A stretch of DNA of 32,000 bases from Oscillospiraceae bacterium (GTDB lineage: Bacteria > Bacillota > Clostridia > Oscillospirales > Ruminococcaceae). Position numbers and translations under genes: made by a program. Below the pieces are notes generated by a model. The model was given only the letters and a program-made list of their open reading frames with translations, made no database searches and was not told where the DNA came from. Of the stretch, positions 9,287 through 25,118 are shown piece by piece (positions within the stretch are counted from its first letter, which is position 1; each line of letters begins with the position of its first letter). The stretch covers positions 63,249-95,248 of the forward strand of contig JAGBAZ010000064.1 in NCBI GenBank assembly GCA_018110905.1, read 5' to 3'.

Positions 9287-9289
9287 TCA

Positions 9290-10009
9290 ATGAAATTCAG
9301 TTTTAACGAACTTGGCAAAAAAGAAAAATCCGTTCTTCTTGTTTACGGAATTGTAGCGTTCATCTGTATTCTTGCATTCATCATTATTCCTTTCCCGAAA
9401 AGCGCTTCCAGCTGGCTTGCGCTTTTGTTCCTACTTGTTTCTTTCTGCGTAAGCCTTTATGCGATGAAACTTGCTTTTGAAAACGGAAAAGAGATCATCA
9501 GCAAAATTTACGGTTTTCCGATTTTCAAAATCAGCGTTTATTACGTTGCTGCCCAGGCAATTTTCAGCGTTCTTGTATGCGTTGTTGCAAGCTTTATCAG
9601 ACTGCCTTATTGGGTAACTCTTCTTGTTTCCGTAATCCTTCTCGGCGCAGCTGTTATCGGAATCGTTATTACCGATAACGCAAGGGATATTATCGAAGAT
9701 ACCGAAAAGAAAGACGTTCGTGATACAAAGAAAATCACTCTTTTCAAAATTGATATTGCCGGAATTGTTGACCGCTGCAAAGACGAAACCGCAAAGAAAG
9801 AACTTGAAAAACTTTCCGAAGCATTCAGATACAGCGACCCGGTTTCCAGCGATGCAACCAAGGAACTTGAGGACGAAATAACCGAAGAACTTGAGGAACT
9901 CAAAAAAGAAGTTGCCGAAAACGATGTGGAAGATATCATCGAAAAAGCAACCGAAATTTCCAACCTTCTTGCAGAAAGAAACAAAGTTTGCAAGGCGTTT
10001 AAGAAGTAA
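9290..10009 (+). CDS. 4-TM membrane protein with acidic helical cytoplasmic tail
   Basis: ATG 9290 lies 3 nt after the SPFH stop, preceded by GGGAGGG. Four hydrophobic helices (VLLVYGIVAFICILAFIIIPF, WLALLFLLVSFCVSLYAM, ISVYYVAAQAIFSVLVCVVASFI, YWVTLLVSVILLGAAVIGIVI) are followed by a D/E/K-rich tail. Confidence 0.8.
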   Translation: MKFSFNELGKKEKSVLLVYGIVAFICILAFIIIPFPKSASSWLALLFLLVSFCVSLYAMKLAFENGKEIISKIYGFPIFKISVYYVAAQAIFSVLVCVVASFIRLPYWVTLLVSVILLGAAVIGIVITDNARDIIEDTEKKDVRDTKKITLFKIDIAGIVDRCKDETAKKELEKLSEAFRYSDPVSSDATKELEDEITEELEELKKEVAENDVEDIIEKATEISNLLAERNKVCKAFKK

Positions 10010-10030
10010 TCAAACAAGGATGCGTTGTTT

Positions 10031-10477
10031 ATGACAGTAAAAGAAGCAAGCCACATTTTTAATCTTGATGAAAAAGAAATTAGAAAAAGAAAACAAGATG
10101 ATATGATTATAGGTGTAAGAAAAGACGGAAAGTTTATTTTTATACCAGATGATACAAAGATTATACCGTCTAAAATAGAAATTAAAGCTTTTTTGTTAGA
10201 AATAATTAAGTATAAAAATAATGATAAAATTGTGTTGGATAGAAGTTTATGCCCAAATAACGACACTTTAATTGCTATTGCAGAATATCTTTATAAAAAA
10301 GGCTTTATCGGTGAATTTGATTATTTTAATAACGCTTACAATTTTTTTGATGAAGTAAAACTCACCGACAAAGGTATAGAGTTCATATTTGAAAAAGAAT
10401 CACAAAAAATTGCCAAATACCAATTTTTTCCCATTCAACTGAACCCAAATAATTCTTTAGTAAGTTTAACATTGTAA
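10031..10477 (+). CDS. small protein with excisionase/MerR-type HTH-like N-terminus
   Basis: ATG 10031 (the track start 10025 is TTG). MTVKEASHIFNLDEKEIRKRKQDDMIIGVRKDGKFIFIPDD resembles the Xis-type winged HTH (..tvkEaa..lgvs..tirr....g.i....g....ip..). The gene is visibly more AT-rich than its flanks. Confidence 0.55.
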   Translation: MTVKEASHIFNLDEKEIRKRKQDDMIIGVRKDGKFIFIPDDTKIIPSKIEIKAFLLEIIKYKNNDKIVLDRSLCPNNDTLIAIAEYLYKKGFIGEFDYFNNAYNFFDEVKLTDKGIEFIFEKESQKIAKYQFFPIQLNPNNSLVSLTL

Positions 10478-10499: not shown

Positions 10500-13127
10500 A
10501 TGTCAGTTTTCAAATGTAAAATGTGCGGCGGCGACCTTGAGGTCACCGAAGGAATGAAAGTAGTCGAATGTGAATATTGCGGAACGACCCAGACCGTTCC
10601 GAACAGCGACAACGAAAAGAAAACGAATCTTTTCAACCGCGCAAACAGACTCAGAATCGCAAACGAATTTGACCGCGCGGCAGGCGTTTATGAAAATATC
10701 ATCTCCGAATTTCCCCGGGAAGCAGAAGCTTACTGGGGCCTTTGCCTTTGCAAATTCGGTATTGAATATGTAGATGACCCGAGAACGGCGGAAAAAATTC
10801 CAACCTGCCACAGAACTGCATTTGAAAGCATTTTTGACGACAGCAACTTCAAAACTGCCATTGAGCTTTCCGACCCGGTCGCAAAGAAAGTGTATAATTC
10901 CGAAGCAAGGATAATCGATACTCTTCAGCAGAACATTCTCACCATCGTAAACCGCGAAAAGCCTTTTGACGTTTTCATCTGCTACAAAGAAACTGATTCC
11001 AAAGGCGACAGAACCATGGACAGCGTTCTTGCACAGGATATCTATGATGCCTTGACCGCAAAAGGACTCAAGGTTTTCTTTGCACGCATAACTCTTGAAG
11101 ACAAGCTTGGTCAGGAATATGAGCCCTACATATTTGCGGCTTTGAACAGCGCAAAAATCATGCTTGCCATCGGCACCGCAGAAGAATACTACAATGCTGT
11201 CTGGGTCAAGAACGAATGGAGCAGATTTCTTTCTCTTATGAAGACCGACAGAAGCAAGGTGCTTATTCCTTGCTATAAAGATATCGACGCATACGATATG
11301 CCTGCTGAGTTCAGAAACCTCCAGGCACAGGATATGGGCAAACTCGGCTTTGTTCAGGATCTTACCAGAGGTGTCTGCAAAATCCTTGGGGTTGAGGAGA
11401 AGAAAGAAACTGTTGTTGAAAAAGTTATCGTAAAAGAAGTTATAAAAGAAAGAGTTGTTGGAGCAAGTACACAAAATATTCCGAACATAAATGTAAGCGG
11501 GATTCTTGATTTGGCGTTCGAAGATCTTAAAAATGGAAAATATTTTGAAGCGAGTAAATCTGCGGGAAAGGCGATTGGATTCGACCCGGCTAATGTCAGA
11601 GCGCATCTTTGCAAGCTTTGCGCAGAAATGAGAGTTAACGATATTGAAAAACTTTCCGAGTCGGAAAAAGGTAATATAGAAGATAGCGATTATTACAAAA
11701 ATATACTTTGCATAGCTGATGATGATCTTAAAGAAAAATTAAAAAAACAAGCAAAAATACAAAAAGCAAGATTTGAAGAAAGAAAGCGCAAAGAAGAGGA
11801 ACGCATCGCGGGAGAAAAAAGAAAAGAACAAGAAGAAATACACATTTTTAATGAAAAATGGGAAATAGAAAAAGTTTCTAAGTTTGAAACAGCTGATAAT
11901 TTATTAAGAAATGCAAAAAGGCTGTCAGATTATGATAAAATCAAAGAACTTTTTGTCGGATATGAAGAAATGGACGAAGTAAAAAATCTTTTAGAAGAAG
12001 TGTCCGCACAAAAAAGAGAATGTTACAGAAAGATTGTAAAACATGTTGAAAGTCAGCTTTCTTTTGGCAATCCACATATCGTTTTTCTTAATAAAGGACA
12101 TGCTTATGTTTCAGGTAAATCAACAACTGCGGCATGTGTTAAAAAAAGTGAACTGTGGAATTTAGACAGCATTTGTTTTGTGCTTGACCATTATGATAAT
12201 AATCAGCAGTGGCCGGAATTTGGATTTATCGGCTTTAAAAAGACTGGTGAAATCACTCAGACTAAAGATTCTGATAATGTGAATTCTGAATATAAAAAAA
12301 GTCCGGATTATGATTTTTCGGACTGTACTGAGATAAAAAAAGTATTGGTTTTTGAAGAAAAAGACTATATTACTCTTAAAATCGATGGAACTGTAGTAAA
12401 AAAAGGCGACTATAGCGAAAAAATTTCTCAGTGGAAAGATATTATCGATATCTCGACAAGCGGTAAACATATTGTAGGTTTAAAATCTGATGGTACTGTT
12501 GTTGCAGTAGGAGAAAACGGCAGTAAACAATGTAATGTTTCTGAATGGAAAGATATAGTTGCAATTGAAACTTCTGAAGAGAATACTTTAGGTGTTAAAC
12601 GAAACGGAACTGTTGTGCAAACAGGAAATAAATATGATATTTCAGATTGGAGAGATATCGTAATTGCTGCTAGTGAACGTGATGGTGATATAACAGCACT
12701 TCAAAGCAATGGGGAATTGGTGCATAAAAATAGAAACCAGTCTCGTTATAATTTTAAAAAAGGAAAGATTGCGGGAGTTTTTGCGAATAACTTTAATACA
12801 GTTGTAATTTATTTTGACGGAAGTGCCGAAATTAAAGGAATAGACAACAATAAGCAATGTAACTGTTGGGCGTGCAAGATATTTGATGATGCGGAAGAGT
12901 TTGCGGAACAAAGAGAAAAAATGCTGAAAGAACGGTATGAAAAGAAAATGAGAGAAAAAGCTGAACAGGAAGCCGCCCGCAAAGCTAAAATTGAGTCTCT
13001 TGAAAAAGAAAAAGCAACCCTTGAAGCGGAACTCTCCAACATAAAAGGCCTTTTCAGCGGTGGCAAAAAAGCAAAAGTTGAAGCAAGAATTGCGGAAATA
13101 GAAAAAGAACTCCAAACCTTGAAATAA
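10500..13127 (+). CDS. zinc-ribbon / TIR-domain protein, paralog B; C-terminal RCC1-like repeats
   Basis: RBS GCGGAGG. It has the same N-terminal chassis as paralog A (Glu codon 239 at 11214-11216). The C-terminus carries beta-propeller-type repeats (HIVGLKSDGTVVAVGENGSKQCNVSEWKDIVAIE.., LGVKRNGTVVQTGNKYDISDWRDIV..) and a terminal coiled coil. Confidence 0.85.
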   Translation: MSVFKCKMCGGDLEVTEGMKVVECEYCGTTQTVPNSDNEKKTNLFNRANRLRIANEFDRAAGVYENIISEFPREAEAYWGLCLCKFGIEYVDDPRTAEKIPTCHRTAFESIFDDSNFKTAIELSDPVAKKVYNSEARIIDTLQQNILTIVNREKPFDVFICYKETDSKGDRTMDSVLAQDIYDALTAKGLKVFFARITLEDKLGQEYEPYIFAALNSAKIMLAIGTAEEYYNAVWVKNEWSRFLSLMKTDRSKVLIPCYKDIDAYDMPAEFRNLQAQDMGKLGFVQDLTRGVCKILGVEEKKETVVEKVIVKEVIKERVVGASTQNIPNINVSGILDLAFEDLKNGKYFEASKSAGKAIGFDPANVRAHLCKLCAEMRVNDIEKLSESEKGNIEDSDYYKNILCIADDDLKEKLKKQAKIQKARFEERKRKEEERIAGEKRKEQEEIHIFNEKWEIEKVSKFETADNLLRNAKRLSDYDKIKELFVGYEEMDEVKNLLEEVSAQKRECYRKIVKHVESQLSFGNPHIVFLNKGHAYVSGKSTTAACVKKSELWNLDSICFVLDHYDNNQQWPEFGFIGFKKTGEITQTKDSDNVNSEYKKSPDYDFSDCTEIKKVLVFEEKDYITLKIDGTVVKKGDYSEKISQWKDIIDISTSGKHIVGLKSDGTVVAVGENGSKQCNVSEWKDIVAIETSEENTLGVKRNGTVVQTGNKYDISDWRDIVIAASERDGDITALQSNGELVHKNRNQSRYNFKKGKIAGVFANNFNTVVIYFDGSAEIKGIDNNKQCNCWACKIFDDAEEFAEQREKMLKERYEKKMREKAEQEAARKAKIESLEKEKATLEAELSNIKGLFSGGKKAKVEARIAEIEKELQTLK

Positions 13128-13145: not shown

Positions 13146-15584
13146 ATGGCAGTATTCAAATGTAAAATGTGCGGCGGTGACCTTGAGGTCACCGAAGGAA
13201 TGAAAGTAGTCGAATGCGATTTCTGCGGAACGACTCAGACTGTTCCCACTGTAAAAGATGAAAATATTCAGAGCCTTTTCAACAGGGCAAATACTCTTCG
13301 TATGAAGTCCGAATTTGACAAAGCGGAAGCAATTTATGAAAAAATCGTGCAAGCAAAAGAGGACGAATGCGAGGCATATTGGGGTATAATTCTCTGCCGC
13401 TATGGTATTGAATATGTGGAGGATCCTAAAACTTTCAAGCGTATCCCCACCTGCCACAGAACTTCCTACGATTCCGTAATTGCGGACGAAGACTATAAAT
13501 CCGCAATAAAATATGCCGATCTCGTCCAGAGAATCGTTTATGAAAACGAGGCAAAGGAAATTGACCGTATTCAAAGGGAGATTCTCGAACTTTCCCAAAA
13601 AGAAGAGCCTTACGACGTTTTTATCTGCTATAAAGAAACGGATTCTGCCGGAAGACGCACTGTTGACAGTGCCATCGCCAACGATATTTACTACCAGCTT
13701 ACCCAGGAAGGCTATAAGGTTTTCTATGCCGCTATCACCCTTGAGGACAAGCTGGGTTCTGCTTATGAACCCTGCATTTTTGCCGCGCTCAATTCCGCAA
13801 AAGTTATGCTTGCCATTGGTACAAAACCGGAATATTTTAATGCCGTCTGGGTGAAAAACGAATGGTCAAGATATCTCCGCCTTATGAAAAACGACCGCAC
13901 AAAACTGCTTATTCCTTGCTATAAGGATATGGATGCCTATGAACTTCCGGACGAATTTGCGCATCTTCAGGCGCAGGATATGGGCAAAATCGGTTTTATC
14001 AACGACATTGTCCGCGGAATCAAAAAGGTTATTGTAAAAGATGAGCAGAAAGCACCAGCTTTTACTGCCGCCGCAGTAGCATCTGCACCTGCAGGAAATG
14101 CTGCACCTCTTCTCAAACGCGCATTCATATTCCTTGAAGATGAGGAATGGGAAAGTGCTGATGAATACTTTGAAAAAGTTCTGGATATGGATCCGGAATG
14201 TGCAGAAGCATATCTTGGAAAACTTTGCGTTGAGCTTGAAGTTACTGATATTGATGAGCTTTCAAACATTAATGATGATTTTGAAAACAGAGCAAATTTC
14301 AAGAAGGCTATTCGTTTTGCAACCGGTGAAGCAAAAAAGAAAATTGATGCGATAATTGAAAACAAAAAGAACAGAATAGAAGAAGAAAAACGCAAAAAAG
14401 AAGAGCAGCTTGCGGAGAAAAAACGCCTTGAGCAGGAAAAAAAGAAAAAAGAGAAGTACTTATTTTTGATTGACAATGTAGAAACATCAACAAATTTTGA
14501 CAGTTTGGAAAATCTTTATCACAGACTGCTTGCTTTGGGAGATTATTTGGATGCGCCCAAATATGCAGAAGAATGCCGTATAAAGATGGAAGAATATGAA
14601 GTCATAGACCGAATTTGGAAAGAATATTCCGAAGCATATGCCGAATATAACTCTGCAAGAAAGGCTCTAGATAACGTTAAAGAAAAATTTTGCAGTGTTG
14701 AAAGTAATTTGACTATCTGGATAAGCGAATTTGAAACTGTTTCTGATGCACGTAATAAATTATTGGATATCGATAAAGAAATTACAGAAACATATAACAG
14801 AATAGTTTTTCTTGCAAAAGAAAAGGAAAATCTTGGAGTTTTTGCTTTTTCAAAAAAGAAAGAAATTTCCGATGAAATTGAAAGACTGGAAGCAAAAAGA
14901 CAAAGGTTGGAATGTGACAGGAAAAAATATAATTCTATAGTTACATGTTCCAAAACAGAAGAAGAATTTAGAGAAAAAATAAAAACTGCAGAGGAAAGCA
15001 AACAATCTGTAGAAAATGAACAGGCTTTTCTTCAGGAAAAAGAAAAAGAGTTCAAAAATAGTTTCGATATTGTAACTGAAAAAGTACTTGATAAAAATGT
15101 ACTTATTAAATTATTTAATTACCAAAATGCAGGTGATGTTCTGCTTTTGAATGAGAGAATAAAGGAATATATTTCGAACGATGAAGAACTTTCCGGACAA
15201 ATAAATACAAACATGGATTATGTGGATGCGGTATCTGATATAGAAGAAATATATTTTGAAGCCTGTGCTCTTCTCAGCAATACCCGTATAAGTAATTCTG
15301 CCGAGCTGGCGCTTGAAAAATTCATGTCTATAAAAGGATATAAGGATTCCAAATTAAAAATTGAAGAATGCAAGAAAAAACTTGGAAAGAACACCGTAAA
15401 ATCAATAAATAAATCCAATACACATAAAAGTATTACGAACGAAAAACGCTGTCCATATTGTGGCTTTTCCTTAGATAATAAAGTGGAGAAATTATTGGAT
15501 CTTTATTTGGAGGGGGAAGATGTTAAATGTCCGGAATGCGGCAGGCTCTTTGATGATGATATAATGATGAAAATTTTAGATTAA
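13146..15584 (+). CDS. zinc-ribbon / TIR-domain protein, paralog C; long coiled coil and C-terminal zinc ribbon
   Basis: RBS GGAGGA; 18-nt gap after paralog B. Same chassis (Glu codon 239 at 13860-13862). The C-terminal half is predicted helical/coiled coil and ends with CPYCG..x22..CPECG. Confidence 0.85.
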   Translation: MAVFKCKMCGGDLEVTEGMKVVECDFCGTTQTVPTVKDENIQSLFNRANTLRMKSEFDKAEAIYEKIVQAKEDECEAYWGIILCRYGIEYVEDPKTFKRIPTCHRTSYDSVIADEDYKSAIKYADLVQRIVYENEAKEIDRIQREILELSQKEEPYDVFICYKETDSAGRRTVDSAIANDIYYQLTQEGYKVFYAAITLEDKLGSAYEPCIFAALNSAKVMLAIGTKPEYFNAVWVKNEWSRYLRLMKNDRTKLLIPCYKDMDAYELPDEFAHLQAQDMGKIGFINDIVRGIKKVIVKDEQKAPAFTAAAVASAPAGNAAPLLKRAFIFLEDEEWESADEYFEKVLDMDPECAEAYLGKLCVELEVTDIDELSNINDDFENRANFKKAIRFATGEAKKKIDAIIENKKNRIEEEKRKKEEQLAEKKRLEQEKKKKEKYLFLIDNVETSTNFDSLENLYHRLLALGDYLDAPKYAEECRIKMEEYEVIDRIWKEYSEAYAEYNSARKALDNVKEKFCSVESNLTIWISEFETVSDARNKLLDIDKEITETYNRIVFLAKEKENLGVFAFSKKKEISDEIERLEAKRQRLECDRKKYNSIVTCSKTEEEFREKIKTAEESKQSVENEQAFLQEKEKEFKNSFDIVTEKVLDKNVLIKLFNYQNAGDVLLLNERIKEYISNDEELSGQINTNMDYVDAVSDIEEIYFEACALLSNTRISNSAELALEKFMSIKGYKDSKLKIEECKKKLGKNTVKSINKSNTHKSITNEKRCPYCGFSLDNKVEKLLDLYLEGEDVKCPECGRLFDDDIMMKILD

Positions 15585-15608: not shown

Positions 15609-18224
15609 ATGGCAGTATTCAAATGTAAAATGTGCGGCGGAGCACTTGAAGTAAATAACGGCGAAAGCGTTGCAGTATGTGATTATTGCGGCACTAAACA
15701 GACTTTGCCGAAAACCGATGACGGCGTTGTTGCAAATCTTTTCAACCGCGCAAATAATCTTCGCCTTAAATGTGAATTCGATAAAGCGGAAGCAATCTAT
15801 GAGAAAATTCTTGAGCAGGACAATACCGAAGCAGAAGCTCATTGGGGCATAATTCTCTGCAAATACGGCATTGAATACGTTGAAGATCCGAAAACTTTTG
15901 AACGTATTCCCACCTGTCACAGAACTTCCTATGAATCCATAACCGCAAGCGCAGAATACCTTGCAGCGCTTGAGCATGCGGATTCTGTGCAGAGAGAAGT
16001 CTATGAGCACGAAGCTAAAGCAATTGATTCTATCCAGAAGAACATTTTGAGCATCGTCAAAAACGAAAAGCCATTCGATGTTTTTATCTGCTATAAAGAA
16101 ACGGACGAAAATGGAAAACGCACTGTTGATAGCGCCATCGCCAACGATATTTACTATCAGCTTACTCAGGAGGGTTTTAAAGTTTTCTATGCCGCAATCA
16201 CCCTTGAGGACAAGCTCGGTCAGGAATATGAACCTTACATATTTGCCGCTCTTAACAGTGCAAAGGTTATGCTTGCAATCGGAACAAAGCCGGAATATTT
16301 TGAAGCGGTATGGGTCAAAAACGAATGGAGCCGTTTTATGAACCTTATGAAAACCGACCGTTCCAAGCTTCTTATTCCTTGCTATAAGGATATGGATGCT
16401 TACGATCTGCCGGAGGATTTTGCTCACCTTCAGGCGCAGGATATGGGTAAAATCGGTTTTATCAACGATGTAGTCCGCGGCATCAAAAAGGTTATTGTAA
16501 AAGATGAGCCGAAAGTGGTTGCACCGGTTGTTACAAAAGTTGTCGCTTCTTCCGGAAGTGAACCGAACACCGCCCAGCTTCTCAAGCGTGCATTTATGTT
16601 CCTCGAGGACAGGGAATGGGAAAGCGCGGACGAATACTGTGAAAAAGTTCTTGACCTCGATGCGGAAAATGCAGAAGCATATCTTGGAAAGCTTATGGCG
16701 GAACTCAGAATCAGTAAAAAAGAATATTTGAGTAGTTGTTCTGACCCGTTCGACAACCGAAACAATTACAAAAAAATAATTCGTTTCGGTGATGAAAAAC
16801 TTTGTGAGGAACTTAAGAGTTATAACAAGCAAATCAGAGAGCGCAACGAACTGAACCGTAAAAATGTAATTTACAACGCCGCCTGCGGATTTATGAATTC
16901 AGCAGAATCTGAAGATGATTATAAAGAAGCGGCTGCAAAATTTGGCGAAGTTTTGAACTTTAAGGACGCAAAAGCAAGAAAAGAAAAGTGCATTGATTTG
17001 GCAGAAGAAGCAAGAAAAGAAACAATTTACCAGCAAGCAGAGAGAAAATATAGTTGTTCTTCATTTGCTGAAGCTGCAGAAACATATGGAAAAATATCCG
17101 GGTATAAAGATTCTGATAAAAGAAAAAAAGAGAGCCTTGAAAAAGCTGAGGATGAACGAAAAAATTCAATTTACCTCGAGGCATGCGAATATAAAAATAC
17201 ACAAACTATTGCTGGATATAAATATGCAATAGAAAAATTTGAAACGATTTTGGAGTGGCGAGACGCTTCTAATCAAATAGAAATTTGTAAAGACAGGATT
17301 TGCATACTTGAACAAAAGGAAGAAAAAGCAAGAATCGAAGCACAGCATAAAGCCGAAGTGGATAGAATTGCGGCAGAAAAGAGAAAGAAGAAAAATAAAA
17401 TAATGGCAGCAATCGTGACGTCAATCGCACTTATTTCTATTGCTGCAATCGTTGTGTTTATAACTGTAATTCAGCCGCAGAACGAATATAATGCTGCTGT
17501 TGCTCTTGTGGAAGAAGGAAAATATGAAGAGGCGTATAATATTTTTATTAAACTTGGAGATTATAAAGATTCTGCTGAAATAGTGTCTAGTGTCCGTATA
17601 CAAAAAATTAAAAATCTTGGAGATATAAAAATCGGTGATGAAATAATACTAGGAGCGTATGAACAAGATAACGATACATCTAATGGCAAAGAAGAAATAA
17701 AATGGATTGTTATTGATTCAAATGGTGGTAAAATTCTTGTTATAAGCAAATATGCCCTTGATTGTAAACCATTTAATACCAAAAATGAAAACACTACTTG
17801 GGAAAAATGTACTCTTCGTAGTTGGTTGAATAATGATTTTTTGAATTTTGCTTTTTCTGAAGCTGAAAAGGAAGTTATTCCAACAATGGTAATTGCGGGA
17901 GCTTGGAATAGTGAACAAAAAACAAGTTCTGGTAATAATACTCAAGATAAAATCTTCTTATTAAGTATAAGTGAGACGGATAAATATTTCAAAACTTATA
18001 AAGATAAATTATGTAAACCGACAGCATATGCTATAGCTAATGGGGCGTTTGCTGACGAATCAAAAGGAAATTGTTGGTGGTGGCTTCGCTCTTTTGGAAA
18101 TGCCCAAAATTTAGTTGAGTATATTAACTATAAAAATACGGATCAAAAGAACAGTTTTAATGTGGATTTTGCCCGGTGTGCTGTCCGCCCCGCAATGTGG
18201 ATTGATTTATCGGCAGTGGAATAA
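15609..18224 (+). CDS. zinc-ribbon / TIR-domain protein, paralog D; single TM helix and C-terminal WWWLRS-motif domain
   Basis: RBS AAGGAAG; 24-nt gap after paralog C. Same chassis (Glu codon 239 at 16323-16325). Repeated ..GYKDS/..FKDA helical repeats. TM helix IMAAIVTSIALISIAAIVVFITVI (nt ~17403-17470) is preceded by KRKKKNK. C-terminus: IKWIVIDSNGGKILVISKYAL..TLRSWLNN..CWWWLRS..VRPAMWIDL. Confidence 0.85.
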   Translation: MAVFKCKMCGGALEVNNGESVAVCDYCGTKQTLPKTDDGVVANLFNRANNLRLKCEFDKAEAIYEKILEQDNTEAEAHWGIILCKYGIEYVEDPKTFERIPTCHRTSYESITASAEYLAALEHADSVQREVYEHEAKAIDSIQKNILSIVKNEKPFDVFICYKETDENGKRTVDSAIANDIYYQLTQEGFKVFYAAITLEDKLGQEYEPYIFAALNSAKVMLAIGTKPEYFEAVWVKNEWSRFMNLMKTDRSKLLIPCYKDMDAYDLPEDFAHLQAQDMGKIGFINDVVRGIKKVIVKDEPKVVAPVVTKVVASSGSEPNTAQLLKRAFMFLEDREWESADEYCEKVLDLDAENAEAYLGKLMAELRISKKEYLSSCSDPFDNRNNYKKIIRFGDEKLCEELKSYNKQIRERNELNRKNVIYNAACGFMNSAESEDDYKEAAAKFGEVLNFKDAKARKEKCIDLAEEARKETIYQQAERKYSCSSFAEAAETYGKISGYKDSDKRKKESLEKAEDERKNSIYLEACEYKNTQTIAGYKYAIEKFETILEWRDASNQIEICKDRICILEQKEEKARIEAQHKAEVDRIAAEKRKKKNKIMAAIVTSIALISIAAIVVFITVIQPQNEYNAAVALVEEGKYEEAYNIFIKLGDYKDSAEIVSSVRIQKIKNLGDIKIGDEIILGAYEQDNDTSNGKEEIKWIVIDSNGGKILVISKYALDCKPFNTKNENTTWEKCTLRSWLNNDFLNFAFSEAEKEVIPTMVIAGAWNSEQKTSSGNNTQDKIFLLSISETDKYFKTYKDKLCKPTAYAIANGAFADESKGNCWWWLRSFGNAQNLVEYINYKNTDQKNSFNVDFARCAVRPAMWIDLSAVE

Positions 18225-18235: not shown

Positions 18236-18433
18236 ATGCCGAACTTAAGTCAGATGCAGGGTGTTTCTGCACATTTGGAAACGCTTAAAGCAAAAGATTC
18301 CCGAAGGCATCCTGCACATTGTATTTTTGCAGAGGGAAAAGGTATAAACCGCGTTTGCACCTGCCCTCAATGCGAAATTTATTTACAGCATTGTGGAACT
18401 GCAAAGCTGTGTGGATATTATGAAAAGAAATAA
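18236..18433 (+). CDS. small Cys-rich hypothetical protein (65 aa)
   Basis: Strong RBS AAGGAG lies 7 nt before ATG 18236, 11 nt after the paralog D stop. Six Cys and several His (..HCIFAEG..CTCPQCEIYLQHCGTAKLCGYY). No family recognised. Confidence 0.5.
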   Translation: MPNLSQMQGVSAHLETLKAKDSRRHPAHCIFAEGKGINRVCTCPQCEIYLQHCGTAKLCGYYEKK

Positions 18434-18449
18434 TTAGCTGTTTACAGAA

Positions 18450-19030
18450 AACGCCGAGCCAAGCCTGCTTTACAGGAAGGTGTAACGACTGGACACGGAG
18501 CAACCCAAGCGGTTGAAGGCACAGTCTGAACTTGCAGGTGACTGCAAGAGCCACACAGAAATGATGTGGCCTCCGCGAAAGCGGTGTAACAAAATTGAAA
18601 ATTAATGTATGTCAAAAAAATAATGACAAAAATTAAGAAATTCGCCTCCACTGTTTTCGCAGCAGTGAGCGAATAGCTTAAGACGGTAACAGCGAATATA
18701 GGTTCCGCAATCATCAGCGAACTAATAGCTGATGCGATAATAAAACAATTTAGTGTAGGTTCTGTTGAGCGTACATAGGCAAACGCTGAATTTATTTGTG
18801 CGATAGTTTTTTTGATATTGTTGTTAGTACAAAAGACTATAGAAAACTATAACAACCTCCTGGAAAACCGTAAAGCCGCAATAACGGTTGACAGAAAAAA
18901 CTGCGGTAAATATTTAAATATGGAGGTAAGAAAGTTGCCTCCCTACACAGTAATGTGTAGCAAACAACTCCGTAAATTCGGTGAAACTCTGTATGCAATG
19001 ACCGGTATAACAATTTGTTTATACCGGTCA
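18450..19030 (+). ncRNA. candidate structured RNA or DNA-structure region (ORF-poor, hairpin-dense)
   Basis: No convincing ORF on either strand. Plus-strand hairpins: CTTGCAG-GTGA-CTGCAAG (18531-18548), GCCACA..TGTGGC (18550-18570), CCGC-GAAA-GCGG (18573-18584), GACTG..CAGTC (18487-18526) enclosing CAACC-CAAGC-GGTTG, TTCGC..GCGAA (18656-18673), CATCAGC..GCTGATG (18712-18734), GGAGG..CCTCC (18922-18942), CTACACA-GTAA-TGTGTAG (18943-18960) and ACCGGTATA..TATACCGGT (19001-19028). Three loops are GNRA only when read on the + strand. Confidence 0.3.
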
Positions 19031-19038
19031 TTCTTTTG

Positions 19039-19374
19039 TTAAATCTCCTCCGGCAAAAGTACCGCTTCCTCGATTTTTGTAATCGCTTTGCAAAACTTTT
19101 CAAAATTCTGGTTGTATTTTTCCGCGTCGATGTTTCCGGTAGCGTTTGCAATTCGCGCGATCTGGTTTAGGTTGTTTCCGATTCCGTAAAGCTGACGCAT
19201 CATGCTCCAGAAAACCTCGTCCGGGTTTGCTTTCGGAACATAACCATTTATATACATTCGGATATATGTTTCCTTCGGAAGTCCTGCCTTTTTTGCGTTT
19301 TTCTCAAGAGTTTTCATCTCAGTTTCATAGAGGCGGACTTTTACGGATTTGGTTCGTTTTCTCATTCTTATCAC
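19039..19374 (-). CDS. mobC: MobC-family relaxosome accessory protein
   Basis: ..RTKSVKVRLYETEMKTLEKNAKKAGL..YGIGNNLNQIARIANATG.. is the RHH plus IGNNLNQIAR signature of the MobC family. No relaxase ORF follows it. Confidence 0.8.
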   Translation of the reverse strand: MIRMRKRTKSVKVRLYETEMKTLEKNAKKAGLPKETYIRMYINGYVPKANPDEVFWSMMRQLYGIGNNLNQIARIANATGNIDAEKYNQNFEKFCKAITKIEEAVLLPEEI

Positions 19375-19391
19375 TCCTTTCTGTTGGGGTT

Positions 19392-19478
19392 GCAGGGGAT
19401 TTCACCTGCCAAACTGCCTTTGGCCGTCCAAAGGCGATGCTTGCGACGGATTACCGGCGGATTCTCACCGCCGGTAAT
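19392..19478. promoter_or_regulatory. hairpin cluster upstream of mobC; candidate oriT
   Basis: GCAGG..CCTGC (19392-19409), CCTTTGG-CCGT-CCAAAGG (19417-19434) and a perfect 11-bp inverted repeat ATTACCGGCGG-ATTCTCA-CCGCCGGTAAT (19450-19478), directly 5' of mobC. Confidence 0.35.
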
Positions 19479-19605
19479 TTTTACAAAAGAGAAAAATATG
19501 TTTGTTTGTTAATGATACAACTTTGGTATCAAAAAATATAAAAATCGATATGAATATTCAGTTTCTTTTTTCAGACGGTAAATCATGGTGCTGAAAAGAG
19601 ATAAA

Positions 19606-20396
19606 TCAAGCACCGGATTCAAAAATGTTGCGCAGTTCTTTGAGTTTTTCAGCTGCATTCTGTTTTCGTATGTTTGCATTGTTGATTTTTACAGGAACAC
19701 AAAGCTCCAGAATTCGGTCATATATCCTTGCTTTGGCAAGATTCTCAGGATTTTGGATTTCATCAAGGGTGAGGTTAGTTGTGACAATTAGAGGCTTTTT
19801 GCTGCGGTAGCGGCTGTCGATCACGCTGAAAACCTGTTCCAGCGCGAATTCGGAATTTCGCTCGATTCCAAGGTCGTCTATTATCAACAGTTCACATTTT
19901 ACTAAGGATTCAAGATATCGGTTTCGTTCTTCAGAAAAGATTCCGGTCAAGGTGTTGATGATTTTTGAAAAGTTGGTCATAACAACCGGGATACCTTTTT
20001 CAATCAGGGCGTTTGCAATGCAGCCGGCGAAAAAGGTTTTTCCGGTTCCGACGTTTCCCCAGATGAGCAGTCCGAGATTTTTCTCCTTCATTTCCGCCCA
20101 GCGGTCAACGTAAGTTTTTGCCTTTTCCATTTCCGGGTTATAGCCTTTGTCGTTTTCAAAGGTGTATTCGGAAAACGCTCGTCGGAAAGTCCGCTTTTCC
20201 TCAAAGCCAGAACCCTTTGACGAAAATCCCGCTTCTTTTCTTTTCGGCGCTGTTCGTTAATTCTGTCAAGCTGGCATCGGCAACTTATGGGAACAAGCTG
20301 TTCCCGGTCGAAGATCGAAATTCTCAGCTGCCGGGGAGTGCCGCAGTTTTTGCAATAAACAATTCCGTCCTCGTTAAGATATTCATCGGGTTTCAT
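19606..20396 (-). pseudogene. DnaC/IstB-like AAA+ helper ATPase with N-terminal zinc ribbon, split by a -1 frameshift
   Basis: The upstream ORF (MKPDEYLNEDGIVYCKNCGTPRQ..LRKSGLSDERF) and the downstream ORF (..[YTFENDKGYNPE]MEKAKTYVDRW..LLIWGNVGTGKTF..LLIIDDLG) are consecutive parts of one protein. The frames join if the A4 run at 20172-20175 (T4 on the coding strand) were 5 nt long. The start ATG 20396 overlaps the upstream stop as ATGA and is preceded by AAGGAGG. Confidence 0.7.
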
Positions 20397-20845
20397 AAGC
20401 TTTCGTCCTCCTTGCATTCATAAATTCTTTTATAATCTTTATCTTTGTTATTGCTTATATAGGGTGGGGAAGGTTTTCTTTCCGTCAAAGGGATAATATT
20501 CTGTCTTTCAGTAAAAGGCGGGATTTTTACATAAATCCTGTTTGTAAGTCCGCCGCCCCTGCGCTTTCTTGCGATAAGGTCAATGCCTTCCAAAGCCCGC
20601 AAAGAGCTTTTTACGGTCATTTCGCTTTTGCCGATAACAGTTGCCAGTTCCTTGAGAGAAAAGGAAACAAAGGCGTTTCCACAGTCGTCAATCCATTTTT
20701 CGCTTTTGAGCGAAAGCCTTGCTCTGTCGAGCAATAAGCAATAAAGGATTTTTGCGGTTTCGTTTATCCGGCGTTCGCTGATCAGGAATTTAGGGAAGAA
20801 CATATACGGAGGAAAGACCGTTTCTTTTGTGATAAAATTGTTCAT
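20393..20845 (-). CDS. RepA_N-type replication initiator / winged-helix protein
   Basis: ..PKFLISERRINETAKILYCLLLDRARLSLKSEKWIDDCGNAFVSFSLKELATVIGKSEMTVKSSLRALEGIDLI.. matches the RepA_N pattern (l..ls..Ak.lY.lL.dr..lS..n.w.De.G..y..f...el). RBS GAAGGAGAGG. Confidence 0.7.
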   Translation of the reverse strand: MNNFITKETVFPPYMFFPKFLISERRINETAKILYCLLLDRARLSLKSEKWIDDCGNAFVSFSLKELATVIGKSEMTVKSSLRALEGIDLIARKRRGGGLTNRIYVKIPPFTERQNIIPLTERKPSPPYISNNKDKDYKRIYECKEDESL

Positions 20846-20869
20846 AACGTCCTCTCCTTCGTACTTGTT

Positions 20870-21235
20870 TTATTCGCCGAGAAAATCCCAGTCAAAGTTT
20901 TCTTCGGGTTTGGATTTTTCAGGAGGAGGGGATGAGGAGCTGTTTATTACGGCGGCACAGCCGGAGAGAAAAAAAGGAAGGGATTTTTCAATGGAACTTT
21001 CAACGGAAGAAACTATTCGTTCGATAAATTTTTCTTCCTTTTCTCTTGTTTCAAGATAAGGATCATTTTCGCTTCGGTAGTATCTTTCAAAGAAATATAC
21101 AATAGCTATTGAAACAGCGTTGCTGTATGATTTGAATTTCTTTTTATCCATCGTTTGAAGATATTGCCATGCTTTCTTTTGAATTTCTTTTCCAAGATTG
21201 AAGCGAATATTTGTGGTTTTAACTTCGTTTTTCAT
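20870..21235 (-). CDS. hypothetical protein, ParR-like by position (possible RHH N-terminus)
   Basis: Its start overlaps the parM stop as ATGA (21232-21235). The N-terminus TTNIRFNLGKEIQKKAWQYL resembles a ribbon-helix-helix strand-helix. The function is inferred from position only. Confidence 0.45.
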   Translation of the reverse strand: MKNEVKTTNIRFNLGKEIQKKAWQYLQTMDKKKFKSYSNAVSIAIVYFFERYYRSENDPYLETREKEEKFIERIVSSVESSIEKSLPFFLSGCAAVINSSSSPPPEKSKPEENFDWDFLGE

Positions 21236-22155
21236 TGGTGTTCCTTTCTGCGAAGAGAAGAATATGCGATATATTCATATCCCTTTGCGGTTGCACAGAT
21301 ATCGTCGATGATGGTTACTCGTTCTTTATCGTAGTTTCCGAAATTTTTGATAAGACAGCCACCGCCGCCGATGACATAGAGTCTTACCAAATCCGGATTG
21401 TATTCATATTTTCGCAGTATTGCGAAAATGTTGTTCACATATTGGTTTACGGTGCGGAGAATGCAGTCGAGATAAGGTTTTGCGATATCTGCGGTTCTTT
21501 TGCGTATAACGGTTTCTATAACGGAATCATCGATTTTTATTCCGAAATTATCAAGAACAGCATTTTTAGCGGCGATCATACATTGGTTTACGCCGGCTTT
21601 TTCCGTCCAGCAGCGGCTTTCAATAGGTTTTCTGTTGCTGATGTAAAGAATATTCATGGTTCCGTTTCCGATATCCACAAGAAGATTTGTTCCGTCAAAA
21701 TCGGATATTTTGCTGATTACGGCGGGGTATCCCTGGGGATAGATACTGCAACCGATAAAACGGATTTTGTAGTCTTTTCCGTTAAAACGGAATTCGGCGG
21801 TTTTGTTTTGCATAAGGTAGCTTCGGAATTCTTCGCGCTGTTTTCTTACCCATGTAAGCGGAAGTCCTGCGGCAAGATGAACATCTGCTTCTTTAATTCC
21901 AAAAGTATTCAGTTCTTTTGCAACAGCCGCAAGGGTGAGAAGGTAGTAATCATCATCGGATGATTTATCAGGGATAAATTCCTTATGTTCTTCGCCGATT
22001 CGATAAAATTTTCCGCCGTATTCAAGAATATTCCCGGCGAAAATCGGTTCGCTTTCATATTCGGTGATTCCGGCAGGGAAAACAGTGTTTGCGGTTTTAA
22101 TGTTGCCGTAACCGTGGTCAACGGCGATGATTTTGACATTGTTCAGGTTTTTCAT
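21232..22155 (-). CDS. parM: ParM/StbA-family actin-like segregation ATPase
   Basis: Start moved to ATG 22155 (MKNLNNV), 6 nt after GGAGGT. IIAVDHGYGNIKTA.. (phosphate 1), LLVDIGNGTMNI (phosphate 2) and YVIGGGG (adenosine) are actin-fold motifs. Confidence 0.8.
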   Translation of the reverse strand: MKNLNNVKIIAVDHGYGNIKTANTVFPAGITEYESEPIFAGNILEYGGKFYRIGEEHKEFIPDKSSDDDYYLLTLAAVAKELNTFGIKEADVHLAAGLPLTWVRKQREEFRSYLMQNKTAEFRFNGKDYKIRFIGCSIYPQGYPAVISKISDFDGTNLLVDIGNGTMNILYISNRKPIESRCWTEKAGVNQCMIAAKNAVLDNFGIKIDDSVIETVIRKRTADIAKPYLDCILRTVNQYVNNIFAILRKYEYNPDLVRLYVIGGGGCLIKNFGNYDKERVTIIDDICATAKGYEYIAYSSLRRKEHQ

Positions 22156-22251
22156 TTTATAACCTCCGTTCATTTTTTTGATTTGATGTTTTGCTTAGGA
22201 TTTGATTCGGTACCGTTTTTTTGAAAACGGTGCCTTTTTCTTTGCAAATTC

Positions 22252-22307
22252 ATTCTAACAAAACAAAAGAGAAACTACATTGAGCGGCTTTTGAGCGAAA
22301 ATTGAGC
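22252..22307 (-). promoter_or_regulatory. parM-operon promoter with three 11-bp-phased GCTCAA repeats (parC/operator candidate)
   Basis: Minus strand reads GCTCAAttttcGCTCAAaagccGCTCAAtg, then 20 nt, then TAGAAT (22252-22257) preceded by TGT. Hexamers start at + coordinates 22280, 22291 and 22302, spaced 11 nt. Confidence 0.5.
22278..22307. repeat. left arm of a perfect 30-bp inverted repeat
   Basis: CATTGAGCGGCTTTTGAGCGAAAATTGAGC is the exact reverse complement of 24778-24807. Confidence 0.95.
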
Positions 22308-22345
22308 AAAAAACAGCTTGTGCAAATTTTGCACAAGCTGTTTTA
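22308..22345 (-). terminator. rho-independent terminator of the STAND gene
   Basis: Stem ACAGCTTGTGC (22313-22323) / GCACAAGCTGT (22331-22341), followed on the minus strand by a T run (A run at 22307-22312 on +). It lies 17 nt past the stop at 22362. Confidence 0.75.
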
Positions 22346-22361
22346 AAATAGAATTTTGTTG

Positions 22362-24671
22362 TTATTTTGGATTTTTCAGAGCTTTCTGACCGGCTTTCCC
22401 AAGTATCGTACCGACATTTACGTAATCGTTTTGGATTTCATTTTTATATTCTTCAATCTTTTCGGGTTCGTCTTTAAAAATGTCTTCGTATATTTTCAGG
22501 GATTTTTTATAGTATTTTAATCCATTTTTGAAATCACTTTTCAGGTAGTAAATAAAACCTAAGGAACGAAGTATTTCCGCACATCCGAGAGTGTTATCAC
22601 CACCGGATTTTTTCATTATCTTAAGAACTTTTTCATACATCTTAACGCCGGAATCAAAATCACCGGTATCAACCAAAAGTGCAGAATAATTTGCAAGCTG
22701 GGTAACTGTGTCATAGGTTGTAAGATTATATTTTTCTATAATCTGTATTCCGCGTTCCATGTATTCTTTTGCTTTGGAATAATTATAAGAGATTCTATAA
22801 AGGCTGCCGAGATTACTGCAGATATTTGCAGTAAGAAGAGCGTTTTCCTCATTGATTTCTGTAATCAAAGAAAGAGCTTTTTCTTCTTCCTTGATTCGCT
22901 TTGTTATATTATCCTCAAGAAAAGCATTGTATTCATGGAGCAATGCTCTGTCAGATGCCGTTCCGACAGAAGGATCTTTTAAAACGGATTCCATTTTGAA
23001 AAGAATACATTTCATGCCATATTTATAGTTATAACAATCCATATAGGGGAAAACATCTTCCATAAAAAGCAGAAATTTTTCCGTATCATCATCTGTAATC
23101 ATATCAAGGATATTTTCAATAGTATGGAACATTGGAAAATAATAAGGAACAGTTTCTCCGTGGCGAAGACAAATGTTTTGCAAGCTTTTGATAAGAGTTA
23201 TGCAATTGTTTATTGTAGGTTTTGTTTCATCAAAGGCAACCTCTTTTATCATCGGGTGGAGCAAAATGCTTTTGCCAGAACCTTCCTGAACAAATCCCTT
23301 TTCAATCAAATCGTTTATTACGTTCATATTTTTAAGGTTCAGCCAATGGGCAAAAAGCTTTCCGCTTATTCCGGAAGAGGGAATAAAAGTGAGATTTCTC
23401 ATAAAATCTGTTTCATCTTTCGAGAGTTTATAAAGAGAAAACAGAGTGTGGATATGAATATAATAAGTTTCCTTTTCGCTTTTTCCGTCCTTGAAAATTT
23501 TAATTTTGTCGGAAGAATCAAGGGAAGCTTTTTCCTTCCGAAGTTTTTCAGCAAGTTCTTCCGGCTCAAGGATTCCGTTTCCCAAAAGTCTTGCGGCAAG
23601 CTCAACCGCAAGGGTATGACTATGAACGGAAAATATGATTTCACTGAGTGCTTCGGAATGCTTATTTGCGTCGGAATAATAATTTTCCATAAGCACAAGG
23701 AGCGTTTCCAGGTTTTCAATTTCCCGAAGATGAAGGCATTTTTGATTATCAAAGCGGCTTCTTGTCGTAAAAAGAACACGGCAGCCGAATTTGAGCACGG
23801 TCCAAAGCAGTTTTTCGTCTGAATAGGTCGTATCGAAATTGTCGATAATCAAAAGAGAATCGCTTTTAAGCGTTTTGAGAAAACGGCTGTGTCGGGAAAA
23901 ACGCTTTTCAAAATTATCTTCAGGGGAATCATCAGCAAAAACCATTTCGGCAATATCATGTTCAAGGTTACCGGAATAGGATATATATAAAATATTGGTA
24001 TATTCCTTTTTATAATGTTTTGCGTATGCTTTTGCGGTCTCGCTTTTGCCGATGCCGGGAATTCCAAAGAGGAATACTTTTCCGTTTTTGCATAAAAGTT
24101 CATGCAGAGCTTCAATTTCGCTTTCTCTTCCGCAGAAATTTTTGCAGGGAGCAGGTACCCCGCAACCGAAAATATAATCGCTTATACCAGGGGAGGTTTT
24201 TGTATTCGGAACGGATTTTGTTTTGGAATCACGCTTGATAAAATTCCGTTCCATGGCGAAAAGCAAAGCGGAAGCAATAAATTCTGCTTCTTCGGAATCA
24301 TTTTCGCATGGGTGTTTTTCAAGAAGCTTTTTCTTCTTCTTTTCGGAAATTCCGCTGTCGCCGATAACGATTTCATAAATTTCGTTAACTGCCGTGGCGC
24401 TGTCGAACATCAGCGGCAGAATGTGGTTTTTAATATCGGAAACCAGTTTTTCAAAATTTTCGCTTTTTGAATAAAAGGAGGGAATCTGAGGACTTACCCT
24501 GTTCTGACCGTTAAACCATTTGCAAACGGAACCGTAGTCGAAATAATATCCGCTTTCCGAAGCGAAGCTACCGAAAAGCTCGTAAAGCAGATCCACCTGG
24601 TCAATGCTTTTGTTTTCACTGATGTATTTTTTGATGGCTGTGATTACCGAATAAAAATCAAGGCGTTCCAT
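22362..24671 (-). CDS. STAND/NB-ARC-like P-loop NTPase with C-terminal TPR array and unknown N-terminal ~190-aa domain
   Basis: Start moved to ATG 24671 (MERLDFY), 4 nt after GGGAGGA. Walker A is FLFGIPGIGKSETAKAYA and Walker B is SLLIIDNFD. The C-terminal third has TPR-type repeats (..LGSLYRISYNYSKAKEYMERGIQI.., ..LANYSALLVDTGDFDSGVKMYEKVLKI.., ..LRSLGFIYYLKSDFKNGLKYYKKSLKIYE). Confidence 0.8.
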   Translation of the reverse strand: MERLDFYSVITAIKKYISENKSIDQVDLLYELFGSFASESGYYFDYGSVCKWFNGQNRVSPQIPSFYSKSENFEKLVSDIKNHILPLMFDSATAVNEIYEIVIGDSGISEKKKKKLLEKHPCENDSEEAEFIASALLFAMERNFIKRDSKTKSVPNTKTSPGISDYIFGCGVPAPCKNFCGRESEIEALHELLCKNGKVFLFGIPGIGKSETAKAYAKHYKKEYTNILYISYSGNLEHDIAEMVFADDSPEDNFEKRFSRHSRFLKTLKSDSLLIIDNFDTTYSDEKLLWTVLKFGCRVLFTTRSRFDNQKCLHLREIENLETLLVLMENYYSDANKHSEALSEIIFSVHSHTLAVELAARLLGNGILEPEELAEKLRKEKASLDSSDKIKIFKDGKSEKETYYIHIHTLFSLYKLSKDETDFMRNLTFIPSSGISGKLFAHWLNLKNMNVINDLIEKGFVQEGSGKSILLHPMIKEVAFDETKPTINNCITLIKSLQNICLRHGETVPYYFPMFHTIENILDMITDDDTEKFLLFMEDVFPYMDCYNYKYGMKCILFKMESVLKDPSVGTASDRALLHEYNAFLEDNITKRIKEEEKALSLITEINEENALLTANICSNLGSLYRISYNYSKAKEYMERGIQIIEKYNLTTYDTVTQLANYSALLVDTGDFDSGVKMYEKVLKIMKKSGGDNTLGCAEILRSLGFIYYLKSDFKNGLKYYKKSLKIYEDIFKDEPEKIEEYKNEIQNDYVNVGTILGKAGQKALKNPK

Positions 24672-24707
24672 AAAATCCTCCCTTCTCAAAAACTGTATTC
24701 TAAGGAA

Positions 24708-24736: not shown

Positions 24737-24777
24737 CGCAAAATGAGAAGTTTACGGAAATTTAATATTTGATTTTT

Positions 24778-25080: not shown

Positions 25081-25118
25081 GGAAAAGTGCTTTTTTGCAT
25101 AGAAGGCTTAAAAAAGCG

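Follow-up and report, generated by a model that had tools for sequence, protein, structure and literature searches.

The window analysed here, a stretch of 32 kb on contig JAGBAZ010000064.1 of an Oscillospiraceae genome assembly (GCA_018110905.1), carries four paralogous genes, denoted A to D, whose products share an N-terminal module that consists of a zinc ribbon (ZnR) and a TIR domain. The subject of this analysis is paralog D, the last gene of the array, an intact open reading frame (ORF) of 871 amino acids (aa) that occupies positions 15609-18224 of the plus strand, starts with ATG and is preceded, about 8 nt upstream of this codon, by the Shine-Dalgarno sequence AAGGAAG. The sequence is identical to that of the D protein found in NCBI/ENA assemblies. 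The complete ORF is organized as ZnR - TIR - TPR-like repeats - transmembrane (TM) helix - stalk - DUF6273, a layout that is predicted to place the TIR domain inside the cell and DUF6273 outside.

The N-terminal Cys4 zinc ribbon (C6, C9, C24 and C27; 15609-15710), identified by sequence and predicted to be cytoplasmic, is retained in 45 homologues, with no substitution of C9, C24 or C27 and near-invariance of C6. The TIR domain (Pfam TIR_2, aa 158-280, 16080-16448; E 4e-11, 43.9 bits against a cut-off of 28) contains the motif W235-V236-x-N238-E239-W240, in which alignments point to E239 (codon 16323-16325) as the putative catalytic residue. The following region of TPR-like helical repeats (aa 321-597, 16569-17399), also predicted to be cytoplasmic, includes 'GYKDS/FKDA' repeats and a K/R-rich juxtamembrane segment; it is recognized by Pfam (TPR_19), is all-helical with pLDDT >90 in the full-length AlphaFold2 (AF2) model and, in a fold search, matches only TPR proteins. 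A PDB sequence search with the cytoplasmic half of D returned designed TPRs only and was set aside. Beyond the TM helix (aa 598-621, 17400-17471), a predicted extracytoplasmic helical stalk (aa 622-670, 17472-17618; AF2 helices with pLDDT >90) contains one TPR-like repeat, 'LGDYKDS'; in relatives, the stalk motif reads xPNxKYNxAxxLMxxGxYxEA...LxGYKDS. The C-terminal part of the protein (17619-18221), predicted to lie outside the membrane, is the globular DUF6273 domain (Pfam aa 707-866; E 7e-28, 98 bits against a gathering cut-off of 23.5) with the CWWWLRS motif at aa 822. Sequence entropy across D is lowest in the TIR domain (0.44 bits), amounts to 1.17 in the DUF6273 core and is highest (2.61) in a hypervariable tip between CWWWLRSFG and AVRPAMWIDL (aa 831-857, 18099-18179), a putative ligand-binding surface that is likely to be the site where the ligand is bound. 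The TPR-like repeat with the consensus xxAxxxFxxLxGYKDS/FKDA...C flanks the TM helix, with approximately three copies on the cytoplasmic side (16900-17399) and one in the stalk (17472-17618), and the number of repeats that follow the helix varies among the relatives of D.

The sole hydrophobic segment of D detected by the hydrophobicity scan is IMAAIVTSIALISIAAIVVFITVI, at nearly the same position where the preliminary description had placed a single strongly hydrophobic helix (~17403-17470); its account of the flanks, KRKKKNK on one side and acidic sequence on the other, was also accurate. All 24 residues of the segment are uncharged, the Kyte-Doolittle mean over 19 residues (KD19) reaches 2.78, and the apparent free energies on the Hessa scale sum to -2.65 kcal/mol over the core. 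The N-side flank with KRKKKNK contains seven K/R per 15 residues, and the C-side flank, QPQNEYNAAVALVEE, contains no K/R and three D/E per 15 residues. A search with full-length D yielded at least 8,000 homologues, the best 120 of which were analysed: all contain TIR_2 and DUF6273, most are full-length at 45-57% identity, and each possesses one hydrophobic segment between these two domains. The position of the helix is conserved in these proteins and its sequence only moderately so; because the position is kept in all 120, the helix appears to be more than a chance hydrophobic stretch. An excess of K/R on the N-side is present in 67 of the 67 non-identical contexts (mean 6.7 versus 1.6) and, in an independent sample from species-representative genomes, in all 49 members with DUF6273 and all 25 with other ectodomains. 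The hydrophobicity scan revealed neither an N-terminal hydrophobic segment nor a signal peptide in D. The helix with its charge bias, the Cys4 zinc ribbon and the NAD-dependent type of the TIR domain, combined with the lack of a signal peptide, make it a well-supported prediction from sequence that D is an N-in/C-out type II signal anchor protein, with the ZnR-TIR half in the cytoplasm and DUF6273 on the extracytoplasmic side. This is the orientation that was originally proposed, and the prediction upholds it not only through the conserved helix and the charge bias but also through relatives with signal peptides, the fold match of the C-terminal domain and the surface-type ectodomains of sister proteins.

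When the 250 aa that follow the helix of D were used as the query, the stalk-DUF6273 unit was found behind many different N-termini. These include lipoboxes (...LLTGC in P0158, ...CTGC in P0150, ...MACGC in P0169 and ...LSAC in P0238), Sec-type signal peptides (P0122, P0127 and P0136), and TM segments that are preceded by a short tail or a simple zinc ribbon; one protein that carries the ectodomain module of D, P0199, is annotated as a Ser/Thr kinase. The structure of the C-terminal region was predicted and compared, as the preliminary description had advised. The AF2 model of aa 589-871 (pLDDT 95.3, pTM 0.86) has a sole significant PDB match in Foldseek, the cryo-EM structure of the secreted, wall-anchored immunoglobulin A (IgA) peptidase of Thomasclavelia ramosa (9qa6; E 5e-8, probability 1.0), whose N-terminal domain is DUF6273 and which contains a signal peptide and a sortase motif (PMC12402451). 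In BFVD, the model matches phage DUF6273 proteins (E 1e-9 to 1e-4) as well as tail and head-decoration proteins, and the PHROGs match of the ectodomain is Hoc-like. A PDB sequence search with the ectodomain profile produced noise, namely GPCR-BRIL fusions aligned to the helical part, and was rejected. DUF6273 is reported to adopt the C-type-lectin fold (PMC10743442; preprint 2024.10.15.618418), an assignment that is taken here from PMC10743442 and not from comparison with classical C-lectin structures, and according to published work, gut phages employ this domain as a receptor-binding domain diversified by diversity-generating retroelements (DGRs).

The family to which D belongs is large and varied. 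The ZnR-TIR module (aa 1-300) as a query retrieved 4,078 clusters at 50% identity (E<=1e-30), and TM helices were counted in the best 150 of these, selected by the N-terminus only. One helix after residue 300 was found in 75 of the 150 representatives, followed in 65 of these by 150 residues or more; 29 representatives contain several helices and 46 none (some of the latter are fragments), so that the membrane-anchored share of this sample is approximately 70%. The Pfam census of ectodomains covered 57 single-helix representatives. TIR_2 is present in all 57, DUF6273 in 16, an RCC1-like propeller in nine and BspA-type leucine-rich repeats (LRR_5) in five, with Peptidase_M23, TPM, FKBP_C and FMN_bind found once each; for the rest, Pfam lists no ectodomain family. 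Post-helix regions in individual genomes include LRR_5 over 814 aa (E 2e-208), LRR_5 combined with Listeria-Bacteroides repeats, RHS/MORN repeats and RCC1-like repeats. The leucine-rich repeats (LRRs), Listeria-Bacteroides repeats, M23, TPM and FMN_bind are typical surface or extracytoplasmic modules. Ectodomains other than DUF6273 follow ZnR-TIR and a single TM helix at the loci L059:10001-13990, L084:4617-7403, L017:6098-9859, L053:9926-13168, L039:103-3078 and L060:9947-13183; the members with LRRs possess the domain composition of Toll-like receptors (TLRs) in the reverse order.

These data bear on the possibility that the helix does not span the membrane or is inserted in the reverse orientation, so that DUF6273 would be cytoplasmic. 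The presence of DUF6273 in paralog A, which has no TM helix, would fit such an arrangement, and the occurrence of 'GYKDS' repeats both before and after the helix might be read as a sign of an uninterrupted soluble array. It nevertheless appears very improbable, given the 24 uncharged residues with the KD value of 2.78, the retention of the helix in every one of the 120 homologues and the universal positive-inside bias in the samples. Furthermore, the domains that follow the helix in relatives are of extracytoplasmic types (LRR_5, Flg_new, Peptidase_M23, FMN_bind, TPM), the stalk-DUF6273 module occurs behind lipoprotein signal peptides, and the N-terminal half consists of a Cys4 zinc ribbon and an NAD-dependent domain that are not preceded by a signal peptide.

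A distinct sub-class of the family ends in three or four TM helices and almost lacks an ectodomain (L048:10149-11993, L033:6979-8988, L086:1812-3641, L087:192-2387 and L015:98-1846); in these proteins, the fusion partner of the TIR domain is possibly a membrane effector or anchor instead of a sensor. The hosts are gut and rumen Clostridia, namely Oscillospiraceae, Acutalibacteraceae, Lachnospiraceae, Ruminococcaceae, Anaerovoracaceae and others, with at least 354 species-level genomes matching the family. Cultured carriers include Allobaculum stercoricanis (GCA_000384195.1; L088:4814-10336), which encodes a TM-less ZnR-TIR protein, an SPFH protein, a 4-TM protein and a 206-aa ORF on a mobilisable element, and Anaerotignum sp. 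MSJ-24 (L024:10001-12454), with SPFH and TIR-TM-DUF6273 proteins; in a related contig, a cassette like that of A. stercoricanis adjoins CBASS. The ZnR-TIR module was absent from the phage and plasmid collections that were searched, in which the DUF6273 part alone was matched, in gut phages and two plasmids; nothing in these collections thus indicates that phages or plasmids carry the family.

In several relatives of D, the tip of the ectodomain is a DGR target. At four loci (L012:4124-8572, L013:10001-14477, L020:10001-13250 and L023:8959-15913), the terminal 120-150 nt of the gene for the TIR-TM-DUF6273 protein recur just downstream as a template repeat (TR). The differences between the TR and the variable repeat (VR) fall almost exclusively on adenines of the TR; classified by the TR base, they are A 24 and C 2 in L012, A 16 and C 1 in L013, and A 18, G 2 and T 1 in L020; in L023, they are A 17 and G 1 for the first target gene and A 17, G 2 and C 1 for the second. 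The translated TR reads CWWWLRSPGNNQNNAANVNNDG...NN...AVRPAL, which is the Asn-codon-rich pattern of DGR templates. In L012 and L013, the TR is flanked by bAvd (E 4e-9) and RVT_1 (E 8e-22 and 5e-22) genes; L023 contains bAvd and a TR for two target genes, with no reverse transcriptase (RT) ORF nearby, and L020 contains only a TR. The VRs of all four loci are collinear with the 3' end of D (CWWWLRSFG, 27 aa, AVRPAMWIDL; nt 18072-18224) and show the same spacing of 27 residues.

With respect to the intracellular half, a profile of 70 TIR regions of the family has the TLR15/TLR2 TIR structure (7ylf, E 7e-6) as the best PDB match, along with a weak match to the flax L6 TIR. The WVxNEW motif is invariant in three alignments that consist of 45, 57 and 70 sequences, and E239 of D aligns with the Glu of SxWCxxEL in the TIR domains of TLRs and plant L6, the residue that is catalytic in enzymatic TIRs. 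As far as can be judged from these alignments, the TIR domain of D is probably an enzyme, with E239 as the putative catalytic residue.

The rest of the array, which is encoded on the same strand as D, consists of paralog A (4977-7418), an SPFH/Band_7_1 protein with Zn ribbons (7448-9286; Pfam E 1e-39), a 4-TM protein with a cytoplasmic helical tail (9290-10009; identified by hydrophobicity and recurrence), a 150-aa ORF in a variable slot of the cassette that in other cassettes is occupied by 206-aa or 211-aa ORFs (10025-10477), paralog B (10500-13127) and paralog C (13146-15584). All genes from A to D are co-directional and separated by gaps of 3-30 nt, and the best promoter-like site, which lies upstream of A and matches the consensus at 11 of 12 positions (TTTACA-17-TATAAT, 4898-4926, plus strand), is a possible promoter for the entire array. 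According to Pfam and the hydrophobicity scan, A is a ZnR-TIR-coiled coil-DUF6273 protein, B a ZnR-TIR-RCC1-like protein and C a ZnR-TIR-TPR-coiled coil-ZnR protein, none of which contains a hydrophobic segment (the maximum KD19 in A is 0.91). The first ~400 residues are common to all four paralogs (A and D are 55% identical over 401 aa); the ZnR-TIR module is nearly identical and the sensors differ. The C-terminal regions of A and D, including DUF6273 (E 2e-22 in A), are 31% identical over 275 aligned residues; A, with no TM helix, can be considered the cytoplasmic version of the sensor. The preliminary description had noted the related, TM-less C-terminal domain of A and proposed that the same module is deployed on both sides of the membrane, and this holds also for the RCC1-like sensor, which is found without a TM helix in B and after the helix in relatives. 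Because A and B are TM-less counterparts of two ectodomain classes, such dual deployment appears to be a general property of the family.

In unrelated genomes, the SPFH and 4-TM genes likewise occur as a pair (44% and 30% identity, respectively) beside genes of the family; the pair adjoins family genes in 49 of the 75 loci, or in 13 of the 19 loci that have 5 kb or more of sequence on either side. For the 4-TM protein, 307 homologues were found, all unannotated; its tail contains a conserved RYSDPxS motif. The cassette (7448-10477 in the window; loci L003-L089, e.g., L005:2000-4493) typically includes the SPFH and 4-TM genes and often a third, small ORF on the same strand as one to four ZnR-TIR genes.

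The genomic context of the array includes a complete Pycsar-type pair directly upstream of paralog A, with the PycC cyclase at 2306-3667 (PADLOC E 7e-35) and the PycTM effector at 4172-4840 (E 1e-25); an unassigned ORF at 3649-4272 overlaps the genes of this pair. Downstream, 12 nt after the stop codon of D, a 65-aa Cys-rich ORF (...CTCPQC...HCGTAKLC...; 18236-18433) has its own ribosome-binding site, AAGGAG, and is called as a gene on both metagenome contigs that carry D. The element that carries the array is integrated next to rpsB-tsf and is mobilisable. Its portion at 18285-27386 encodes an IstB-like ATPase, RepA_N and ParM-like proteins, a serine recombinase (25797-27386) and, on the minus strand at 22362-24689, a STAND NTPase of 775 aa that contains TPRs. 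On another contig, this element includes MobC, and a variant contig additionally carries a ParE toxin pair. Elsewhere, the cassettes adjoin integrases, McrBC and type I restriction-modification (R-M) systems, or CBASS.

Altogether, it appears quite likely that D is a type II membrane receptor with an immune role, in which ligand-induced clustering of the lectin-like binder outside the cell leads to activation of the TIR domain inside. The ectodomains would cluster on binding a ligand at the cell surface, the most plausible candidates being phage particles, phage tail proteins and other fast-evolving antigens; this would bring the cytoplasmic TIR domains into apposition and trigger NAD+ cleavage or synthesis of a signal nucleotide, in analogy to the response of TLRs to ligands and to bacterial and plant TIRs that are activated by oligomerisation. 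Because TIR enzymes are activated by self-association, clustering of the ectodomains is the simplest route of signalling through a single helix. The four paralogs would then form a sensor set that covers both compartments, with DUF6273 inside (A), an RCC1-like sensor (B), a coiled coil (C) and DUF6273 outside (D), and the SPFH/4-TM pair could be either a scaffold for the receptor in the membrane or an effector, an arrangement reminiscent of Thoeris loci, in which a single effector serves several TIR sensors. A broader proposition, which we regard as possible but somewhat doubtful, is that gut Clostridia possess a very large family of transmembrane immune receptors, some with tips rewritten by DGRs, that would recognize phages or other antigens outside the cell, signal inward by TIR oligomerisation in cooperation with an SPFH/4-TM membrane module, and be functionally analogous both to TLRs and to adaptive antigen receptors.

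Several observations weigh against this reading or limit its reach. The 32 kb window contains no TR, Avd or RT and no second copy of the 3' end of D, and the differences between the D tip and the TRs of its relatives show no adenine bias; for these reasons, D was rejected as a DGR target and does not seem to be currently diversified. Judging by the sequence, it is a non-diversified member of the scaffold that DGRs target in relatives, although a DGR may lie elsewhere in the same genome. The TIR region (aa 149-319, 16053-16565), which is the most conserved part of the protein, has the lowest confidence in the full-length AF2 run (pLDDT ~35, compared with >90 in the helical repeats and the ectodomain), probably due to the shallow, low-diversity alignment of 45 sequences, so the geometry of the active site is not readable from the model. 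In a Gram-positive bacterium, an ectodomain of 250 aa would sit beneath or within the cell wall, which would limit the access of large ligands.

Moreover, A and B carry the DUF6273 and RCC1 sensors with no TM helix, so that sensing outside the cell is not essential to the function of the family. In one alternative, D has the predicted topology and the ectodomain sends no signal inward: the helix would localize the TIR domain to the SPFH/4-TM complex, the ectodomain would be an anchor, an adhesin or a decoy for phage receptor-binding proteins or cell-wall glycans, and the TPR region would read cytoplasmic cues. The TM-less paralogs A to C share the ZnR-TIR-TPR module and would therefore be activated from inside, the 29 multi-pass proteins among the 150 representatives almost lack an ectodomain, and the TPR-like region in the cytoplasm is long and modelled with high confidence, all of which is compatible with tethering. 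We consider this rather unlikely because the ectodomains are long, diverse and of binding types (DUF6273/C-type-lectin-like, LRR, beta-propeller) and because a tip that is hypermutated by DGRs in some members is hard to explain in a passive anchor. In addition, one sensor class can take the place of another at this position whether or not the helix is present, which suggests that the C-terminal module sets the specificity in all paralogs.

The immune role is the other part of this reading on which the evidence is divided. The PADLOC models did not match A to D, the SPFH protein or the 4-TM protein, nor did they match the STAND protein of the element, PycC and PycTM being the only hits in the window; and a random set of 142 neighbouring ORFs gave approximately 10 PADLOC hits, several of these to housekeeping-like families. 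Because of this background, the defence context of the family loci is suggestive but not statistically established. Accordingly, D could be a surface receptor unrelated to immunity that recognizes glycans, IgA, neighbouring cells or kin and controls growth or NAD-derived signalling. Apart from the lack of matches to known defence models and the weak enrichment of the neighbourhoods, this would be in line with the limitation of the family to gut Clostridia, with the presence of DUF6273 in an IgA-cleaving surface peptidase (PMC12402451), and with the description of most cellular DGR targets as membrane-anchored binders of extracellular substrates (Roux et al., PMC8144416). Conversely, the elements on which the cassettes reside are integrative or mobilisable, with Pycsar, CBASS and McrBC/R-M as neighbours, and the arrays of paralogs with swapped sensors are typical of immune receptor families. 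To our knowledge, the bacterial TIR enzymes that have been characterised by experiment all function in defence or as virulence effectors. In view of these features, a non-immune function appears unlikely, and the immune receptor remains the preferred interpretation.

As far as we know, the bacterial TIR proteins examined to date detect infection within the cell. The literature searches turned up no account of TIR-TM-DUF6273 proteins, TIR-TM-LRR proteins or an SPFH-4TM-TIR cassette, and no paper that joins TIR, SPFH and anti-phage function; a 2024 survey of E. coli TIR systems noted that the TM and LRR features of the TLR type are seemingly absent from bacterial TIR systems (PMC11350192). Thus, the family of Toll-receptor-like proteins in gut Clostridia that includes D is apparently undescribed. 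The initial remark that a bacterial TIR protein sensing outside the cell would be unusual is correct with regard to the literature but not with regard to nature, where the family is very abundant in gut Clostridia. Should the predicted topology be true, bacteria also build receptors with the sensor outside and TIR inside, in thousands of variants that include LRR and DGR-hypermutated lectin-like ectodomains. It would then become testable whether bacterial immunity can recognize phages before their genome enters the cell, by what means a TIR enzyme is activated through a membrane, and what the DGRs of gut commensals select for. DUF6273, the SPFH (Band_7_1) proteins and the unannotated 4-TM family also gain a concrete functional context.

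Comparison with known systems reveals partial similarities to several of these. Thoeris likewise includes TIR proteins with a conserved catalytic-type glutamate (in D, by alignment only) and, similarly to the A-to-D array, one to several TIR paralogs encoded next to a conserved partner module. However, ThsB is a small, cytoplasmic protein that senses inside the cell, in contrast to the 871 aa of D with its TM helix and ectodomain; no ThsA-type effector (SIR2/SLOG, Macro-TM or caspase-like) was found in the cassette by PADLOC or Pfam; and the D TIR matches the NCBIfam model of the type III Thoeris protein ThcB4 far below the threshold (E 4e-5, 22.6 bits against a cut-off of 220). Membership in Thoeris was rejected on the grounds of the missing effector, the lack of a PADLOC match and this sub-threshold hit. 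Pfam detects no cyclic nucleotide monophosphate (cNMP)-binding domain in A to D, which accordingly are not TIR effectors of Pycsar. The PASTA-type Ser/Thr kinases (PknB/PrkC) of Firmicutes have a type II bitopic layout that is the same as that of D, with an N-terminal cytoplasmic catalytic domain, one TM helix and a C-terminal extracytoplasmic binder of ~250 aa, but the output of D is a TIR domain instead of a kinase and the sensor is DUF6273 instead of PASTA. Zorya (PMC11946911) resembles the model proposed for D in that an attack is detected at the level of the envelope and relayed to cytoplasmic effectors; it does so with the motor-like ZorAB complex and nucleases, and there is no homology or common domain.

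The closest system in concept appears to be the DGR-diversified C-type-lectin 'antigen sensors' (Dore et al. 2024, PMC10907252; Kaur et al. 2020, PMC7159879). As in the relatives of D, these contain a C-terminal C-lectin domain with a DGR-variable tip and are encoded in canonical target-Avd-TR-RT cassettes; they are coupled to conflict effectors that include TIR, and some are predicted to be periplasmic. They differ in their distribution, multicellular Proteobacteria and cyanobacteria as opposed to gut Clostridia, and in their architecture, which involves STAND NTPases or MoxR-vWA ternary systems, whereas in the family of D the TIR domain is joined directly to the sensor via one TM helix, with no NTPase and with SPFH and 4-TM partners; D itself additionally lacks a DGR in the window.

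Finally, the animal TLR/IL-1R receptors share with D, by prediction, a single TM helix between a binding ectodomain and a cytoplasmic TIR domain, and with the D family the combination of a conserved TIR with diversified ectodomains, in some relatives LRRs. The TLR-like topology assigned to D in the preliminary description thus stands as far as TIR inside, one TM helix and a sensor outside are concerned, but not in orientation or ectodomain. TLRs are type I proteins, whereas D is predicted to be type II, the reverse of animal TLRs, with an N-terminal TIR domain and no signal peptide; its ectodomain is the lectin-like DUF6273 and not LRR, and the LRRs of its relatives are of the BspA type rather than the TLR type. 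Unlike TLRs, the family of D has no MyD88-like adaptors (no adaptor-like gene was seen in the Pfam annotation of the genes of the window), and the TIR domain of D keeps the glutamate of the enzymatic type and is probably an enzyme. Judging by these sequence features, D is not a homologue of TLRs, and common descent is unsupported beyond the TIR fold; rather, the compartment logic of the TLRs appears to be reproduced in this family.

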